Positions 22,298-45,181 of a DNA stretch of 64,000 bases are shown in pieces (the stretch's first letter is position 1; the number at the start of each line of letters is the position of its first letter). Where the stretch lies: the NCBI RefSeq assembly GCF_055900595.2, contig NZ_CM148325.1. One strand, given 5' to 3'. A program made the translations under genes and the position numbers. Below the pieces are notes generated by a model that was not told the origin of the DNA, did no database searches, and saw only the letters and a list, made by a program, of their open reading frames with translations.

Positions 22298-22435
22298 GTA
22301 GGCCTGATAAGACGCGAGCGGCGTCGCATCAGGCACATTGCCAGTGTCGGATGCGGCGTGAACGCCCTATCCGACCTACAGAATTTACAGAATCTGGAAC
22401 GCATCAGGTATCAGCAAGGTTACCTGATGCGACGA
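22298..22435. repeat. Cluster of REP-like palindromes, ndh-ycfP intergenic
   Basis: gtaggcctgataagacgcgagcggcgtcgcatcaggc, tgtcggatgcggcgtgaacgccctatccgacctac, catcaggta...tacctgatg. Confidence 0.65.
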
Positions 22436-26575: not shown

Positions 26576-28765
26576 ATGCTTTCAACACAATTTAACAGGG
26601 ATAATCAACATCAAACCACCTCCAAACCGTCACTGCTTGCCGCCTGCATAGCACTGGCACTCTTACCTTCCGCCGCTTTTGCTGCACCAGCCACTGAAGA
26701 AACGGTGATTGTTGAGGGTTCCGCCACTACTCCAGTTGATGACGAAAATGATTACAGCGTAACGTCTACCTCTGCGGGTACCAAAATGCAGATGACTCAA
26801 CGTGATATTCCTCAGTCGGTCACTATTGTTAGTCAGCAGCGGATGGAAGATCAGCAGTTACAAACGCTGGGCGAAGTGATGGAAAACACGCTGGGGATCA
26901 GCAAAAGTCAGGCGGATTCCGATCGTGCTCTTTATTATTCCCGCGGATTCCAGATCGATAACTATATGGTTGATGGTATCCCCACCTATTTTGAATCGCG
27001 CTGGAATCTGGGCGACGCACTTTCTGATATGGCACTGTTTGAACGCGTAGAAGTAGTGCGTGGCGCGACAGGACTCATGACCGGTACGGGTAATCCATCT
27101 GCGGCAATTAATATGGTTCGAAAACACGCGACCAGTCGTGAATTTAAAGGCGATGTCTCGGCAGAATACGGTAGCTGGAACAAAGAACGGTATGTGGCGG
27201 ATTTACAAAGTCCACTCACCGAAGATGGTAAAATCCGCGCGCGAATTGTCGGCGGCTACCAGAATAACGACTCATGGCTGGACCGCTACAACAGTGAAAA
27301 GACCTTCTTCTCCGGCATTGTTGATGCTGATTTAGGCGATCTTACGACGCTTTCAGCCGGTTACGAATATCAGCGCATTGATGTTAATAGCCCAACGTGG
27401 GGCGGTTTACCGCGCTGGAATACTGATGGCAGCAGCAACAGTTACGATCGCGCACGCAGTACCGCACCTGACTGGGCGTACAACGATAAAGAGATCAACA
27501 AGGTCTTTATGACCCTGAAGCAGCGGTTTGCTGATACCTGGCAAGCGACACTGAATGCCACCCACTCCGAAGTCGAATTTGACAGCAAAATGATGTATGT
27601 CGATGCCTATGTAAACAAAGCGGATGGTATGCTGGTTGGGCCATACAGTAATTATGGACCTGGCTTTGATTATGTCGGCGGCACCGGTTGGAACAGCGGC
27701 AAACGTAAAGTTGATGCGCTGGATTTGTTCGCTGACGGTAGTTATGAATTGTTTGGTCGTCAGCACAATCTCATGTTTGGTGGCAGTTACAGCAAACAAA
27801 ACAATCGTTACTTCAGTTCATGGGCCAACATCTTCCCGGATGAAATTGGCAGTTTCTACAACTTTAATGGCAATTTCCCACAAACCGACTGGTCACCACA
27901 GAATCTGGCGCAGGACGATACCACACATATGAAATCGTTATATGCTGCCACTCGTGTCACCCTTGCCGATCCGCTGCATCTGATCCTCGGCGCACGTTAT
28001 ACCAACTGGCGGGTTGATACGCTGACTTATAGCATGGAGAAAAACCACACCACGCCTTATGCTGGACTGGTGTTTGACATCAATGATAACTGGTCGACCT
28101 ACGCCAGCTATACCTCTATTTTCCAGCCGCAAAATGACCGTGACAGTTCAGGCAAATATCTGGCTCCAATCACCGGTAACAACTACGAGCTGGGTCTGAA
28201 ATCGGACTGGATGAATAGCCGTCTGACCACCACGTTAGCCATCTTCCGTATTGAGCAGGATAATGTCGCTCAGTCCACCGGTACACCTATCCCCGGCAGC
28301 AACGGCGAAACCGCCTATAAAGCGGTGGATGGGACAGTCAGTAAAGGTGTGGAATTTGAACTCAACGGCGCAATTACCGACAACTGGCAGCTGACGTTTG
28401 GCGCAACGCGCTATATTGCAGAAGATAACGAAGGAAACGCCGTTAATCCTAATCTGCCACGCACCACGGTTAAAATGTTCACCAGCTATCGGTTGCCTGT
28501 CATGGCAGAGTTGACGGTCGGCGGTGGTGTTAACTGGCAAAATCGCGTGTATACCGACACCGTGACACCGTATGGCACCTTCCGCGCCGAGCAAGGTAGC
28601 TACGCGCTGGTGGATCTCTTCACCCGCTACCAGGTGACGAAAAACTTCTCGTTACAGGGGAACGTCAATAACCTGTTCGACAAAACCTACGATACGAACG
28701 TGGAAGGTTCTATCGTCTACGGCGCACCGCGTAATTTCAGCATTACCGGCACGTATCAATTCTGA
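26576..28765 (+). CDS. fhuE: TonB-dependent outer-membrane receptor for coprogen/ferrioxamine B/rhodotorulic acid
   Basis: 729 aa; signal peptide, TonB box, terminal ...NFSITGTYQF aromatic C-terminus. Confidence 0.96.
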   Translation: MLSTQFNRDNQHQTTSKPSLLAACIALALLPSAAFAAPATEETVIVEGSATTPVDDENDYSVTSTSAGTKMQMTQRDIPQSVTIVSQQRMEDQQLQTLGEVMENTLGISKSQADSDRALYYSRGFQIDNYMVDGIPTYFESRWNLGDALSDMALFERVEVVRGATGLMTGTGNPSAAINMVRKHATSREFKGDVSAEYGSWNKERYVADLQSPLTEDGKIRARIVGGYQNNDSWLDRYNSEKTFFSGIVDADLGDLTTLSAGYEYQRIDVNSPTWGGLPRWNTDGSSNSYDRARSTAPDWAYNDKEINKVFMTLKQRFADTWQATLNATHSEVEFDSKMMYVDAYVNKADGMLVGPYSNYGPGFDYVGGTGWNSGKRKVDALDLFADGSYELFGRQHNLMFGGSYSKQNNRYFSSWANIFPDEIGSFYNFNGNFPQTDWSPQNLAQDDTTHMKSLYAATRVTLADPLHLILGARYTNWRVDTLTYSMEKNHTTPYAGLVFDINDNWSTYASYTSIFQPQNDRDSSGKYLAPITGNNYELGLKSDWMNSRLTTTLAIFRIEQDNVAQSTGTPIPGSNGETAYKAVDGTVSKGVEFELNGAITDNWQLTFGATRYIAEDNEGNAVNPNLPRTTVKMFTSYRLPVMAELTVGGGVNWQNRVYTDTVTPYGTFRAEQGSYALVDLFTRYQVTKNFSLQGNVNNLFDKTYDTNVEGSIVYGAPRNFSITGTYQF

Positions 28766-28785
28766 ATAACACCTGTAATAAATAT

Positions 28786-28809
28786 CCTCCGGCATAGCCG
28801 GAGGTTTTT
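28786..28809 (+). terminator. IS200 end hairpin with T-tract (cctccggc-ata-gccggagg-ttttt)
   Basis: Perfect 8-bp stem plus TTTTT inside the IS right end; would terminate fhuE read-through; copy B equivalent at 35617-35640. Confidence 0.5.
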
Positions 28810-28885
28810 CAAATGCGCCTGTAAGGCTCTGTTACCAGCCGCGCCCTAACAGGCGCATACGATCTGACATTTGCATTCAACTTCG

Positions 28886-29344
28886 TTACTTACGGCCCGT
28901 AAACGGGCTGCCCGGATATGGAATCGATAACTGCTCCCCCATTTTATCCTCTTCAAGCTGGTGCTTTATGTAGTCCTGTATCTTCGCCGTGTTCTTACCC
29001 ACCGTATCGACATAGTACCCTCGGCACCAGAACTCCCTGTTTCTGTATTTGAATTTCAAATCCCCAAACTGCTCGTAAAGCATCAGACTGCTTTTCCCTT
29101 TCAGATATCCCATAAAGCCGGATACGCTCATTTTGGGTGGGATTTCCACAAGCATATGGATATGATCTGCGCAGCACTCTGCTTCCAGAATCCGTACGCT
29201 TTTCCACTCACACAGCTTTCTCAAAATACTGCCTATCGCCCTACGCTTCTCTCCGTAAAACGCCAGTCTTCGGTATTTCGGCGCAAAAACTATGTGATAT
29301 TTACAGTTCCAGCGGGTGTGCGCTAAGCTCTTTTCGTCCCCCAT
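28886..29344 (-). CDS. tnpA: IS200 transposase TnpA (Y1 HUH family)
   Basis: ORF 28886..29395; ATG at 29344 gives MGDEKSLAHTRWNCKYHIVFAPKYRR...HIHMLV (HUH)...CRGYYVDTVG (catalytic Tyr), ~152 aa. Confidence 0.92.
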   Translation of the reverse strand: MGDEKSLAHTRWNCKYHIVFAPKYRRLAFYGEKRRAIGSILRKLCEWKSVRILEAECCADHIHMLVEIPPKMSVSGFMGYLKGKSSLMLYEQFGDLKFKYRNREFWCRGYYVDTVGKNTAKIQDYIKHQLEEDKMGEQLSIPYPGSPFTGRK

Positions 29345-29420
29345 TGGGACCCCCTTTTGATTTCTTGTTTGACACTTGCAGTTGCCAGACCGCAAGGTGT
29401 TTTAACAAATCAAAAGGGGT
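29345..29420 (-). promoter_or_regulatory. IS200 tnpA 5' leader stem-loop that occludes the ribosome-binding site
   Basis: In tnpA sense, ccccuuuugauu pairs with aaucaaaagggg, which covers the SD immediately upstream of the ATG; described for Salmonella IS200. Confidence 0.55.
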
Positions 29421-29456
29421 TTTAATAACTGGCTCAAAGCTGAAAGCTTTCCGGAA

Positions 29457-29480
29457 CCCCCAGCCTAGCTGGGGGTTTTC
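29457..29480. terminator. IS200 left-end perfect hairpin (ccccc-agcctagct-ggggg)
   Basis: Perfect palindrome followed by tttt on the plus strand; IS200 ends carry hairpins that block impinging transcription. Confidence 0.5.
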
Positions 29481-29489
29481 TGTGCACAA

Positions 29490-29512
29490 AAAAGGCAGCC
29501 ATCTGGCTGCCT
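29490..29512 (-). terminator. ptsG rho-independent terminator
   Basis: In ptsG sense, ggcagccagatggctgcc followed by a T-run, then the IS200 end. Confidence 0.7.
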
Positions 29513-29535
29513 TAGTCTCCCCAACGTCTTACGGA

Positions 29536-30969
29536 TTAGTGGTTACGGATGTACTCATCCATCTCGGTTTTCAGGTTATCGGATTTAGTACCGAAAATCG
29601 CCTGAACACCAGAACCAGCAACCACTACGCCCGCTGCGCCCAGTTTCTTCAGGCCAGCCTGATCCACTTTAGACACATCAGCAACGCTGACGCGCAGACG
29701 GGTAATACATGCGTCGAGGTTAGTGATGTTTTCTTTACCACCAAACGCAGCAACCAGAGCCGGTGCCATTTCGCTGGTACCTGTCGCTTTTGCATCATCA
29801 GTCGCGTCTTCACGACCCGGCGTTTTCAGATCCAGTGCTTTAATCAGCACGCGGAAGATGGTGTAGTAAACAATTGCATAACCGATACCGACGATCGGGA
29901 ACAGCCACAGTTTGCTGCTGTTACCAGACAGAACGATGAAGTCGATCAGACCGTGCGAGAACGACGTACCGTCACGCATCCCCAGAAGAATACAGATTGG
30001 GAATGCCAGGCCTGCCAGAATCGCGTGGATGATGTACAGGATAGGCGCAACGAACATGAAGGAGAACTCGATCGGCTCGGTGATACCGGTCAGGAACGAG
30101 GTCAGCGCCGCGGAGATCATGATACCGCCCACTTTCGCGCGGTTTTCCGGTTTAGCAGAGTGCCAGATAGCAATTGCGGCAGCTGGCAGACCGTACATTT
30201 TGAACAGGAAGCCGCCAGACAGTTTACCCGCAGTCGGGTCACCCGCCATATAACGCGGAATGTCGCCGTGGAAAACCTGACCTGCAGCGTTGGTGTATTC
30301 ACCAATCTGCATCTGGAAAGGTACGTTCCAGATGTGGTGCAGACCAAACGGTACCAGGCAACGTTCGATGAAACCGTAAATGCCAAACGCAACTACCGGG
30401 TTCTGGTAAGCAGCCCACTGAGAGAAGGTCTGGATTGCAGAACCAATAGGCGGCCAAATGAAGGACAGCACAACGCCAGTAAATATGGCAGCCAGGCCTG
30501 AAATGATCGGCACAAAGCGTTTACCGGCAAAGAAGCCAAGATACTCAGGCAGCTTAATACGGTAGAAACGGTTAAACATGTACGCTGCGATCGCACCGGA
30601 GATGATCCCCCCGAGTACGCCAGTATCCGCCAGGTGTTTAGAGGCGATTTCTTCAGCAGGTAAATGCAGTACCAGTGGCGCAACCACGGCCATGGTTTTA
30701 ACCATGATGCCATAGGCAACAACTGCGGCCAGCGCGGATACGCCATCGTTATTGGTAAAGCCGAGGGCGACACCGATCGCAAAAATCAGTGGCATGTTTG
30801 CAAAGACGGAACCGCCTGCTTCTGCCATAACATGCGATACAACGGCGGGCAGCCAGCTGAAATTCGCGGAACCGACGCCCAGCAGAATACCTGCGATAGG
30901 CAGTACGGATACCGGCAGCATCAGCGATTTACCGACCTTTTGCAGGTTAGCAAATGCATTCTTAAACAT
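29536..30969 (-). CDS. ptsG: Glucose-specific PTS enzyme IICB
   Basis: 477 aa, [33 protein letters not shown]...; EIIB Cys motif in the C-terminal domain. Confidence 0.97.
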
Positions 30970-35606: not shown

Positions 35607-36320
35607 TAATAAATATCCTCCGGCATAGCCGGAGGTTTTTCAAATGCGCCTGTAAGGCTCTGTTACCAGCCGCGCCCTAACAGGCGCATACGATCTGACA
35701 TTTGCATTCAACTTCGTTACTTACGGCCCGTAAACGGGCTGCCCGGATATGGAATCGATAACTGCTCCCCCATTTTATCCTCTTCAAGCTGGTGCTTTAT
35801 GTAGTCCTGTATCTTCGCCGTGTTCTTACCCACCGTATCGACATAGTACCCTCGGCACCAGAACTCCCTGTTTCTGTATTTGAATTTCAAATCCCCAAAC
35901 TGCTCGTAAAGCATCAGACTGCTTTTCCCTTTCAGATATCCCATAAAGCCGGATACGCTCATTTTGGGTGGGATTTCCACAAGCATATGGATATGATCTG
36001 CGCAGCACTCTGCTTCCAGAATCCGTACGCTTTTCCACTCACACAGCTTTCTCAAAATACTGCCTATCGCCCTACGCTTCTCTCCGTAAAACGCCAGTCT
36101 TCGGTATTTCGGCGCAAAAACTATGTGATATTTACAGTTCCAGCGGGTGTGCGCTAAGCTCTTTTCGTCCCCCATTGGGACCCCCTTTTGATTTCTTGTT
36201 TGACACTTGCAGTTGCCAGACCGCAAGGTGTTTTAACAAATCAAAAGGGGTTTTAATAACTGGCTCAAAGCTGAAAGCTTTCCGGAACCCCCAGCCTAGC
36301 TGGGGGTTTTCTGTGCACAA
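35607..36320 (-). mobile_element. IS200-family insertion sequence, copy B (714 bp), same orientation as copy A
   Basis: Matches 28776-29489; flanks diverge at 35606/28775 and 36321/29490. Confidence 0.9.
35717..36175 (-). CDS. tnpA: IS200 transposase TnpA (Y1 HUH family), copy B
   Basis: Protein identical to copy A; same RBS-occluding stem-loop at 36176-36251. Confidence 0.92.
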   Translation of the reverse strand: MGDEKSLAHTRWNCKYHIVFAPKYRRLAFYGEKRRAIGSILRKLCEWKSVRILEAECCADHIHMLVEIPPKMSVSGFMGYLKGKSSLMLYEQFGDLKFKYRNREFWCRGYYVDTVGKNTAKIQDYIKHQLEEDKMGEQLSIPYPGSPFTGRK

Positions 36321-36347
36321 GAAAAAAGGCCCGCAAGCGGACCTTTT
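36321..36347 (-). terminator. fabF rho-independent terminator
   Basis: In fabF sense, ggtccgc-ttgc-gggcc followed by ttttttc, then IS200 copy B. Confidence 0.65.
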
Positions 36348-42767: not shown

Positions 42768-42795
42768 TTAACTTTGTAACGTCATAGAGTCAAAG

Positions 42796-42950
42796 AAAAA
42801 GGCAGCCTGTGGTTGCCTTTTGCCAATAATTCGCACACATTGCGGGTTACTGCTTTATTTTCGTTCAGTGCTGATAACGAACATCAACCTGCAAAACGAA
42901 GCGCATAGTTTAAAATGGCTATCATCAATACGCTATATCTGTTGGAAAAA
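42796..42950 (-). ncRNA. sraB: Candidate small RNA SraB in the yceD-yceF intergenic region
   Basis: K-12 has sRNA SraB between yceF and yceD, codirectional with yceD (recalled). A terminator-like hairpin with T-tract on the minus strand (42796-42821) lies ~40 nt upstream of the yceD ATG; the 5' end is not determined from sequence. Confidence 0.35.
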
Positions 42951-42953
42951 AAT

Positions 42954-43538
42954 ATGCCTAAACTTATTTTAGCCTCCACCTCGCCCTGGCGTCGCGCTCT
43001 TCTGGAAAAACTGCAAATCTCTTTTGAATGTGCAGCACCCGAGGTCGACGAAACCCCACGCAGTGACGAATCACCGCGACAGTTGGTGCTTCGACTGGCG
43101 CAGGAAAAAGCGCAATCTCTGGCGTCACGTTATCCGGATCATTTAATTATTGGTTCAGACCAGGTATGTGTTCTTGATGGCGAAATCACCGGTAAACCGT
43201 TAACGGAAGAAAATGCCCGTCTGCAATTACGCAAAGCCAGCGGCAATATCGTCACCTTCTATACTGGCCTGGCGTTGTTTAATTCGGCGAATGGGCATCT
43301 GCAAACAGAAGTGGAGCCTTTTGACGTCCATTTCCGTCACCTGAGCGAGGCGGAGATTGATAATTACGTGCGTAAGGAGCATCCCCTGCACTGTGCGGGT
43401 AGCTTTAAGAGTGAAGGATTTGGCATTACGCTGTTTGAGCGTTTAGAAGGGCGTGACCCTAACACGCTGGTTGGTTTACCGCTAATCGCGCTGTGTCAGA
43501 TGTTACGTCGGGAAGGGAAAAATCCGCTGATGGGATAG
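42954..43538 (+). CDS. yceF: Maf-like nucleoside triphosphate pyrophosphatase YceF
   Basis: ORF 42915..43538; ATG at 42954 gives [20 protein letters not shown]... 194 aa (Maf family). Confidence 0.92.
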
Positions 43539-44820: not shown

Positions 44821-45181
44821 GTTTCCGTGTCCATCCTTGTTAAAACAAGAAATTTTACGGAATAACCCATTTTGCCCGACCGATCATCCACGCAGCAATG
44901 GCGTAAGACGTATTGATCTTTCAGGCAGTTAGCGGGCTGCGGGTTGCAGTCCTTACCGGTAGATGGAAATATTTCTGGAGAGTAATACCCAGTCTGTTTC
45001 TTTGATAATTGCGCTGTTTTTCCGCATGAAAAACGGGCAACCGACACTCTGCGCCTCTTTGAGCTGACGATAACCGTGAGGTTGGCGACGCGACTAGACA
45101 CGAGGCCATCGGTTCACACCCGGAAAGGCGTTACTTTGCCCGCAGCTTAGTCGTCAATGTAAGAATAATGAGTAAGTTACG
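44821..45181 (+). promoter_or_regulatory. rne promoter and long 5' UTR (RNase E autoregulation region); boundaries approximate
   Basis: Established: the K-12 rne mRNA has a ~361-nt leader containing hairpins that mediate autoregulation; 5' boundary here is by analogy only. Confidence 0.5.

Follow-up and report, generated by a model that had tools for sequence, protein, structure and literature searches.

Two identical IS200 elements in an Escherichia coli chromosome retain the leader architecture that silences Salmonella IS200

The analysed window, a 64,000-nt stretch of an Escherichia coli chromosome, contains two 711-bp IS200 elements (IS200/IS605 family, IS200 group), both on the minus strand and 100% identical to each other. 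With a probability of about 0.9, we consider them to be complete elements that carry the whole self-repression apparatus published for Salmonella IS200, mobile-competent and normally almost silent. This reading draws on the sequence of the elements, the predicted structure of the tnpA leader, the covarying conservation of that structure, an intact TnpA catalytic set and one strain-specific copy, all of which are observed here; the repression itself, expression of the antisense RNA art200 and binding of hairpins by TnpA would follow by analogy with Salmonella IS200 and with IS608/ISDra2. Self-silencing of IS200 has already been characterised experimentally in Salmonella, and our results leave the picture of this known system unchanged; leads on recent mobility and on terminator targeting are modest extras.

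Copy A (positions 28777-29487) lies between the terminator of ptsG (29536-30969, minus strand) and the stop codon of fhuE (26576-28765, plus strand); the region of the initial annotation (29345-29480) is its 5' part, read on the minus strand. Copy B (35608-36318) has the fabF terminator on one side and pabC on the other, these genes lying on either side of position 36,000. The exact repeat formed by the two copies is 714 bp long, of which 711 bp constitute the element, without target duplication, because the empty sites read TTTTTT^ACAGGTG for copy A in K-12 MG1655 and TTCTT^AGCTTT for copy B in both K-12 and the genome Z0117EC0005; by this comparison each copy is a simple insertion. The right-end base of the element is also the exact end of a repeat-collapsed Dickeya contig. 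The left end of each copy touches the T-run of a host intrinsic terminator. For copy A this is the ptsG terminator (29492-29513, minus strand), whose T-run stops exactly at the element, so that the minus strand reads terminator, T-run and then immediately GTGCACAGAAAACCCCCAGCTAGGCTGGGGGTT. For copy B it is the fabF terminator (36319-36345, minus strand), consisting of GGUCCGC-UU-GCGGGCC followed by UUUUUUCUU. Both terminators are present without an IS in K-12, as is that of fabF in Z0117EC0005. The elements have the features of the IS200 group: they are about 700 bp long, have neither terminal inverted repeats nor a target-site duplication, and bear at both ends subterminal hairpins that show compensatory changes in relatives.

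Each copy encodes an HUH/Y1 transposase, TnpA, of 152 amino acids plus stop (28886-29344 in copy A and 35717-36175 in copy B, minus strand), and the open reading frame is intact, as the initial annotation had stated. The protein matches Pfam PF01797 (Y1_Tnp) over residues 11-129 (E = 7.9e-37), and its relatives of solved structure are PDB 2ec2, 2f4f, 2a6m and 2xm3. H61-I-H63, Y125 and Q129 are all present, the HUH and YxxxQ motifs aligning with those of 2ec2 and 2f4f; among the relatives checked from the matches listed, HUH occurs in 64/64 and YxxxQ in 63/64. Y125 is the catalytic tyrosine of Salmonella TnpA and was mutated in the catalytically dead Y125F control (PMC4513863). We also considered a catalytic tyrosine within the motif RGYYV and rejected it, as the PDB alignment and the Y125F mutant (PMC4513863) place the residue in the C-terminal helix, with Y125 in IQDYIKHQ. 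TnpA is colinear with, and 97.4%, 96.7% and 93.4% identical to, its counterparts in IS200C, Salmonella IS200F and Y. pestis IS1541B, respectively (comparators taken from plasmid and E. coli collections), and shows no frameshift and no active-site substitution relative to these three. At residue 27 the window protein has L, where close relatives have Q and 64 wider relatives from the matches listed have K, Q, R, T or M, never L; given the variability of the position, L27 is probably harmless.

The 170-nt leader upstream of tnpA is predicted to fold stably, with a minimum free energy (MFE) of -68.1 kcal/mol compared with -47.8 ± 4.3 kcal/mol for shuffled sequences (z = -4.68; 0 of 200 shuffles as stable). 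Folding, for which both MFE and centroid structures were computed, gives four parts, all on the minus strand: a 10-bp hairpin, a small hairpin, a long stem-loop with a 13-bp base and a 5-bp hairpin whose loop contains the AUG. The first of these, the left-end hairpin AACCCCCAGC-UAG-GCUGGGGGUU (29455-29477, element nt 11-33; 36286-36308 in copy B), forms in both RNA and DNA folds. At its core, CCCCCAGC and GCUGGGGG make up a perfect inverted repeat of 8 bp of G/C, closed by a 3-nt loop and lengthened to 10 bp by flanking A-U pairs. The initial annotation had described a perfect palindrome at the element end; the inverted repeat is indeed perfect, but it starts 10 nt inside the left end rather than at the very end. 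A terminator scan called this hairpin on neither strand, the sense direction being without a U-tract; in Salmonella IS200, the corresponding hairpin is a bidirectional terminator (PMC4513863). The small hairpin, AAAGCU-UUC-AGCUUU (29436-29450), surrounds the reported tnpA transcription start at about nt 40.

The 5'UTR stem-loop (29351-29419, element nt 69-137; 36182-36250 in copy B) is the part predicted to occlude the ribosome-binding site. In its 13-bp lower stem, the anti-Shine-Dalgarno arm, or anti-SD arm, CCCCUUUUGAUUU (29419-29407, element nt 69-81) is paired with the Shine-Dalgarno (SD) arm AAAUCAAAAGGGG (29363-29351, element nt 125-137), and above this stem sits a conserved apical stem-loop, UUGCGGUCUGGCAACUGCAA. 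The stem covers the SD sequence AAGGGGGU (29349-29356, element nt 132-139), which lies 4 nt upstream of the tnpA start codon ATG (29344-29342). The SD is fully paired: six of its bases pair with the anti-SD arm, while the last two fall in the AUG-loop hairpin GUCCC-AAUGG-GGGAC (29336-29350). Partition-function calculations give every SD base a pairing probability of at least 0.99, whether the RNA is started at nt 1 or at about nt 40. The proposal in the initial annotation that the leader can fold so as to sequester the SD is thus borne out by the predicted structure. The same architecture is intact in both copies, as had also been suggested: the Rfam family RF01405 (STnc490; gathering threshold 56 bits) matches each at full length (29354-29477 and 36185-36308, model positions 1-124/124, 146.4 bits, E = 6e-30). 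These matches are on the tnpA-sense strand, opposite to the published STnc490, which is an antisense RNA (PMC2515195).

We then compared the leader with those of relatives found in a scan of one genome per species, which yielded at least 80 loci with a close TnpA, ranging from Dickeya, Citrobacter, Vibrio and Edwardsiella to many Firmicutes and Negativicutes; the matches listed include no E. coli, Salmonella or Yersinia genomes. Folded individually, the leaders of these relatives adopt the same four-part structure. Alignment of 71 leaders with MAFFT followed by RNAalifold recovered only the left-end hairpin and the apical stem; the lower stem was missed because its variable arms were misaligned. 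A covariance model built on 12 leaders matched at full length immediately upstream of tnpA at about 78 of the 80 listed loci and provided an alignment of 68 distinct sequences. In this alignment, whose fit to the model structure somewhat inflates the pair counts, standard pairs occupy 92.5% of cells, compared with 72.5% in shuffled alignments and 35-47% when the pairing partners are slid, and the covariation score is 0.479, compared with 0.155 and 0.04-0.085, respectively.

Compensatory changes occur in every helix. The SD stem has 98.3% of cells paired and compensatory change in 13/13 pairs; the corresponding values are 99.3% and 6/10 pairs for the left-end hairpin and 94.2% and 6/7 pairs for the apical stem. 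The small hairpin at the tnpA transcription start is the weakest helix (76.4%, 4/6 pairs), and the AUG-loop hairpin, with 80-84% of cells paired, also shows compensatory changes in relatives. The arms of the SD stem vary widely, as in CTCCCTTTGCTAT/ATAGCAAAGGGAG and CCTCCGTTTGTGG/CCACAAACGGAGG, yet they always pair the SD. The slid-partner control and these raw arm sequences make it safe to conclude, despite the model-fitted alignment, that the leader structure appears to be under selection, and the compensatory conservation of the SD-occluding stem across phyla gives this view quantitative support.

On the opposite strand, we identified a 90-nt candidate art200 (STnc490; 29334-29423, plus strand), which would start opposite tnpA codons 3-4, form a stem-loop complementary to that of the 5'UTR and have UUUU as its last bases. 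It is predicted to fold with -38.4 kcal/mol (z = -5.49). Salmonella art200 starts at nt 153/154, with a promoter that has a good -35 and an "almost unrecognizable" -10 (PMC4513863), and the position and length of the candidate agree with these starts and with the published 90-nt size. By direct reading, a putative promoter can be placed at 29300-29329 (plus strand), with a -35 TTTACA (29300-29305), an 18-nt spacer and a weak -10 TAAGCT (29324-29329); one spacer base of this region differs from the Salmonella and Yersinia elements. A scan for consensus sigma-70 promoters returned none for either art200 or tnpA, which is uninformative given that the published art200 -10 is nearly unrecognisable too. 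In 60 of the 68 leaders from the matches listed, at least four of the five bases before the anti-SD arm are A, and the opposite strand therefore reads as a hairpin followed by a U-run, as art200 does.

The features found here are those described for Salmonella IS200, as the initial annotation had claimed: their coordinates match the published ones (PMC4513863), and in an alignment with IS200C, IS200F and IS1541B no change is seen in the left hairpin, in either arm of the SD stem, in the apical loop or in the distance from SD to ATG. In the Salmonella element, tnpA transcription starts near nt 40, and the stem, art200 and Hfq each independently block 30S binding; disruption of the stem combined with depletion of art200 leads to more transposition (PMC4513863). 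By analogy, transcription arriving from a neighbouring gene would be stopped first at the adjoining host terminator and then at the left-end hairpin (nt 11-33). In the scant tnpA mRNA made from a weak internal promoter, nt 69-81 would pair with nt 125-137 and bury the SD, and with the AUG framed by the small adjacent hairpin, 30S subunits would be unable to bind. From the opposite strand, art200, as a complement of the 5'UTR stem-loop with a U-tail, would provide an independent block, and Hfq a third. As single-stranded DNA, the left- and right-end hairpins would most likely be the sites recognised by TnpA for "peel and paste" transposition.

The right end is compatible with such a DNA role. 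Its hairpin, CCUCCGGC-UAU-GCCGGAGG (28786-28804, minus strand), is preceded by GAAAAA and followed by ATATTTATT, the final 9 nt of the element, and was called terminator-like on both strands by the terminator scan. Further inside, DNA folding reveals an inverted repeat, ATGCGCCTGT...ACAGGCGCAT, with 10-bp arms (28813-28858, minus strand), and the 114-nt right end as a whole folds with z = -4.99. The left and right hairpins are of a common design, in which GAAAA precedes a G/C stem of 8 bp with a loop of 3 nt, followed by a T-rich tail, and 23 of the 25 relatives examined have the right-end layout with compensatory changes and a conserved ...TTATT end. The relatives examined show no informative variation for an IS608-like guide/target covariation between the 4 nt 5' of the right hairpin and the right-end cleavage site, and such a pairing is speculative here. 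The GC skew of the plus strand of the window is -0.04, and the active strand of the element is therefore expected on the lagging-strand template, as PMC6006769 reports for the family.

A first alternative is that the hairpins matter mainly as DNA, recognised by the transposase in single-stranded DNA as in IS608/ISDra2, with RNA regulation being secondary. We regard this as a possible but doubtful account. PMC5027513 and PMC6006769 describe recognition of subterminal hairpins by TnpA proteins of the IS200/IS605 family, although a literature search did not find it for IS200 itself. The shared design of the two end hairpins fits this account, as does the near lack of G-U pairs in the left-end hairpin of the 68 relatives, which is expected of a structure that acts as DNA or on both strands. 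However, this account leaves unexplained the 5'UTR stem, in which the SD always forms the 3' arm and covaries with its partner, and the G-U pair of the apical stem, kept in 59/68 sequences, works only in sense RNA. Mutation of the lower stem in the Salmonella element, moreover, raises ribosome binding, tnpA expression and transposition (PMC4513863). For the end hairpins, DNA and RNA roles are both likely to be true: these hairpins are probably also TnpA recognition sites in single-stranded DNA, and by inference from the family the left-end hairpin of copies A and B would be bound by TnpA.

A second, rather unlikely, alternative holds that the 5' structures are kept mainly as domesticated host regulators, in the form of a sRNA processed from the 5' part of tnpA and of art200 acting in trans, and that silencing of the transposase is a side effect. 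Processing of the tnpA 5'UTR in Salmonella yields RNAs of 90 and 110 nt, which repress invF and have effects on more than 70 genes (PMC5435999; PMC12594629), art200 is abundant and binds Hfq (PMC2515195), and the 5'UTR in the window is almost identical to that of Salmonella. Against this, the covarying architecture extends to Firmicutes, Negativicutes and others, and what stays the same throughout is that the SD is paired, rather than any seed sequence. The gene invF, reported as the trans target, is part of Salmonella pathogenicity island 1 and is presumably absent from the E. coli hosts. The two roles are in any case compatible.

That the elements are still mobile is suggested by their distribution. 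Of 5426 complete E. coli genomes, 2642 contain matches to the element, the majority of them being IS200C, ~96% identical to it. The ptsG-fhuE insertion is found in only 9 of the 5426, each with 15-17 places that match the query. The fabF-pabC site is occupied in 219 genomes, by IS200C, and the window variant was found at this site in none of the 5426 complete E. coli genomes searched. Over 19.65 kb (19,657 aligned bases), the complete genome Z0117EC0005, which has the same ptsG-fhuE copy, shows 3 mismatches to the window, and structurally the two differ only in the 711-bp element at fabF-pabC, copy B. The flanks of copy B carry the SNPs of Z0117EC0005, not those of genomes with IS200C at fabF-pabC. 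The simplest reading of these sequences is a recent transposition of the window variant into a site where IS200C has independently inserted at the same nucleotide. An alternative origin of copy B, by recombination with an allele occupied by IS200C and subsequent conversion, was considered and is less parsimonious, as the flanks are like those of the relative with the empty site and differences from IS200C run through the whole element.

The remaining explanation, that the copies are immobile relics whose identity and tidy structures reflect recent duplication or gene conversion and not retained function, can appeal to the description of IS200 as essentially immobile in Salmonella and E. coli (PMC12594629; PMC4513863) and to the fact that recent transposition and gene conversion cannot be told apart from two identical copies alone, but it is very improbable in view of the site of copy B being empty in a near-identical genome whose SNPs its flanks carry, the intact catalytic residues and ends, the compensatory changes across phyla, which argue for selection, and the transposition in E. 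coli of Salmonella TnpA (96.7% identical) once repression is bypassed (PMC4513863). The suggestion of the initial annotation that the elements are functional and tightly repressed, not decayed relics, thus gains support from the absence of copy B in that genome and from the 15-17 places in nine genomes, with repression itself presumed from identity with the Salmonella element. The evidence from copy B is in slight tension with the customary view that IS200 is immobile. If repression is intact, 15-17 near-identical copies and a fresh insertion need explaining, either by rare escapes that have accumulated or by leakier repression in this host, and the E. coli lineage that has both may offer a natural setting for asking how IS200 escapes repression.

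The position of the elements next to host terminators is not peculiar to the window. Among the distinct left flanks of the listed relatives and the two window copies, 54/62 have a terminator-like hairpin and T-tail ending at the element, compared with 0/114 control windows 150-300 nt further upstream. TTnTT is the sequence of the five flank bases, and ...TTATT that of the element's own end. A statistical association of terminators with IS200/IS605 elements is already reported in a 2026 preprint (10.1101/2025.07.22.666184) and is therefore not new; the nucleotide-level insertion rule, TTnTT after a hairpin, may be. That preprint was the only work on terminators upstream of ISs found in our literature search, and insertion beside terminators may already have been described for IS200 or IS1541 in the 1990s.

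We tentatively suggest, at somewhat less than even odds, that IS200-group transposases from Proteobacteria to Firmicutes aim at TTnTT after intrinsic-terminator hairpins on the lagging-strand template, and that the E. coli variant is still moving in nature despite intact three-layer repression. Two IS200 variants at the same nucleotide of the fabF terminator, and one strain-specific copy, are in line with this idea. A possible reason for such targeting is that a terminator, with its G/C hairpin and T-rich tail, mimics the right end of the element (G/C hairpin and ATnTTTATT). Survival of harmless insertions could be behind part of the bias. The nearly universal placement of left ends directly behind a host terminator would point to a target rule open to biochemical testing.

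Among known systems, the closest is Salmonella IS200 itself, characterised by Ellis et al. 2015 (PMC4513863) and earlier by Beuzon et al. 1999, whom that paper cites. Both have a single 152-aa tnpA, the SD AAGGGGGU, Y125, and the same sequences of the hairpin, SD stem and apical loop, with a conserved art200 region. The left hairpin spans nt 11-33 here and nt 12-34 in the published element, where it is a terminator hairpin, and the SD-sequestering 5'UTR stem-loop spans nt 69-137 here and nt 69-138 there (PMC4513863). The elements differ in length (711 bp here, 707 bp in Salmonella; PMC4513863) and are ~92% identical overall at the DNA level, with a small number of substitutions in the central part of the 5'UTR stem-loop, the one in the art200 promoter spacer, and Q27L in the window TnpA. 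[quoted passage not shown]

E. coli IS200C has the same length class and layout, is 96% identical at the DNA level, differs from the window element at only two positions of the regulatory region, and sits at the same nucleotide and in the same orientation at the fabF terminator in its 219 genomes. The window element is nevertheless a distinct sequence variant, with matches of at least 99% identity in 216 records, and the right ends of the two differ in length by one T. IS200C is a RefSeq/PGAP name, a label that the window variant does not bear in PGAP. Yersinia IS1541 is more diverged (87% DNA identity); its left-end hairpin and SD stem are identical to those of the window, and a hairpin and T-run adjoin its left end too. 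It is reported to express STnc490 and to be active during infection (PMC4513863). Typically, it is present in far more copies, on average 39.8 per Yersinia genome in the BLAST survey by Ellis et al. 2015 (PMC4513863).

With IS608 and ISDra2, the window elements have in common an HUH/Y1 TnpA homologous to 2a6m and 2xm3, subterminal hairpins, the absence of a target duplication, a left end that adjoins a short specific target and an active strand that is expected on the lagging-strand template. In contrast to these elements, IS200 lacks tnpB, its hairpins are perfect, its left end is also a translational control region, and its apparent target is a T-tract (TTnTT), not TTAC or TTGAT. A further parallel is offered by group IIC introns, which insert just downstream of intrinsic terminator stem-loops and recognise a hairpin and T-rich motif in single-stranded nucleic acid. 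The analogy is one of niche choice only, as the mechanism of these introns, based on a ribozyme and a reverse transcriptase, is unrelated to that of IS200.

IS200-group elements, including both copies in the window and most of those at the loci of relatives (L008-L085), have a host intrinsic terminator directly upstream of their left ends, as judged from the 60 nt preceding the element in each case. This terminator occupies window positions 29488-29513 next to copy A, which lies between ptsG and fhuE, and 36319-36345 next to copy B, which lies between fabF and pabC. Among the matches listed, a hairpin with a T-tail reaching the element edge is present in 54 of 62 distinct left flanks, as compared to 0 of 114 control windows taken 150-300 nt farther upstream. 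The consensus of the left flanks, again among the matches listed, is TTnTT, and the right end of the element itself reads ...TTATT. A statistical association between terminators and IS200/IS605 elements is given in a 2026 preprint (10.1101/2025.07.22.666184). Targeting and survival are candidate alternative causes of this terminator-adjacent placement.

Copy B (35608-36318) was compared with the corresponding loci of strains Z0117EC0005 and MS 196-1; the former lacks copy B and has only 3 mismatches relative to the window over 19.65 kb. IS200C, an element ~96% identical to the window copies, sits at this very nucleotide of the fabF terminator, and with matching orientation, in 219 other genomes. 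The fabF-terminator site looks like an insertion hot spot that has received two independent hits.

Copy A separates fhuE from the terminator it shares with ptsG, so the right-end hairpin of this copy (within window 28777-28809, plus strand) may now terminate fhuE transcripts. Read on the plus strand, the hairpin is followed by TTTTTC and was scored as terminator-like in a terminator scan; the region also matches Rfam Ysr202 at that family's 3' end, though weakly and below threshold (27 bits).

At the other end of the element, the Rfam STnc490 model (RF01405) matches the tnpA-sense strand of both copies (window 29354-29477 and 36185-36308, minus strand), a match that takes in the left-end hairpin. 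As the published STnc490/art200 RNA runs antisense to tnpA (PMC4513863; PMC2515195), the match shows where the sRNA is encoded but not on which strand. Rfam matches above threshold elsewhere in the window, to the rne 5'UTR element (44821-45157, plus strand), SraB (42792-42960, minus strand) and naRNA4 (22301-22376, minus strand), are expected E. coli features bearing no relation to the IS200 copies.

Judging from leader sequences, conservation of an antisense RNA that resembles art200 and carries its own terminator may extend far outside the enterobacteria. An A-run immediately 5' of the anti-SD arm (window 29420-29424, minus strand), scored over the 5 nt preceding column 87 of the leader alignment, is present in 60 of 68 distinct leaders from many phyla among the matches listed; on the opposite strand it forms a U-run behind a hairpin. 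Moreover, G-U pairs are almost absent from the lower stem in these 68 leaders, among the matches listed, as expected if folding is needed on both strands.

Decayed IS200 copies do exist and differ in appearance from those in the window: the entire 5'UTR stem-loop is gone in Vibrio plantisponsor (L014), and in Citrobacter youngae (L007) and Enterobacter sp. (L011) the left-end hairpin lacks its 5' arm. In the window variant, TnpA residue 27 (codon at 29264-29266, minus strand) is L, which occurs in 0 of 64 wider relatives among the matches listed, these having K, Q, R, T or M instead. IS200C, Salmonella IS200F and IS1541B, in contrast to the window variant, all carry Q at this position.
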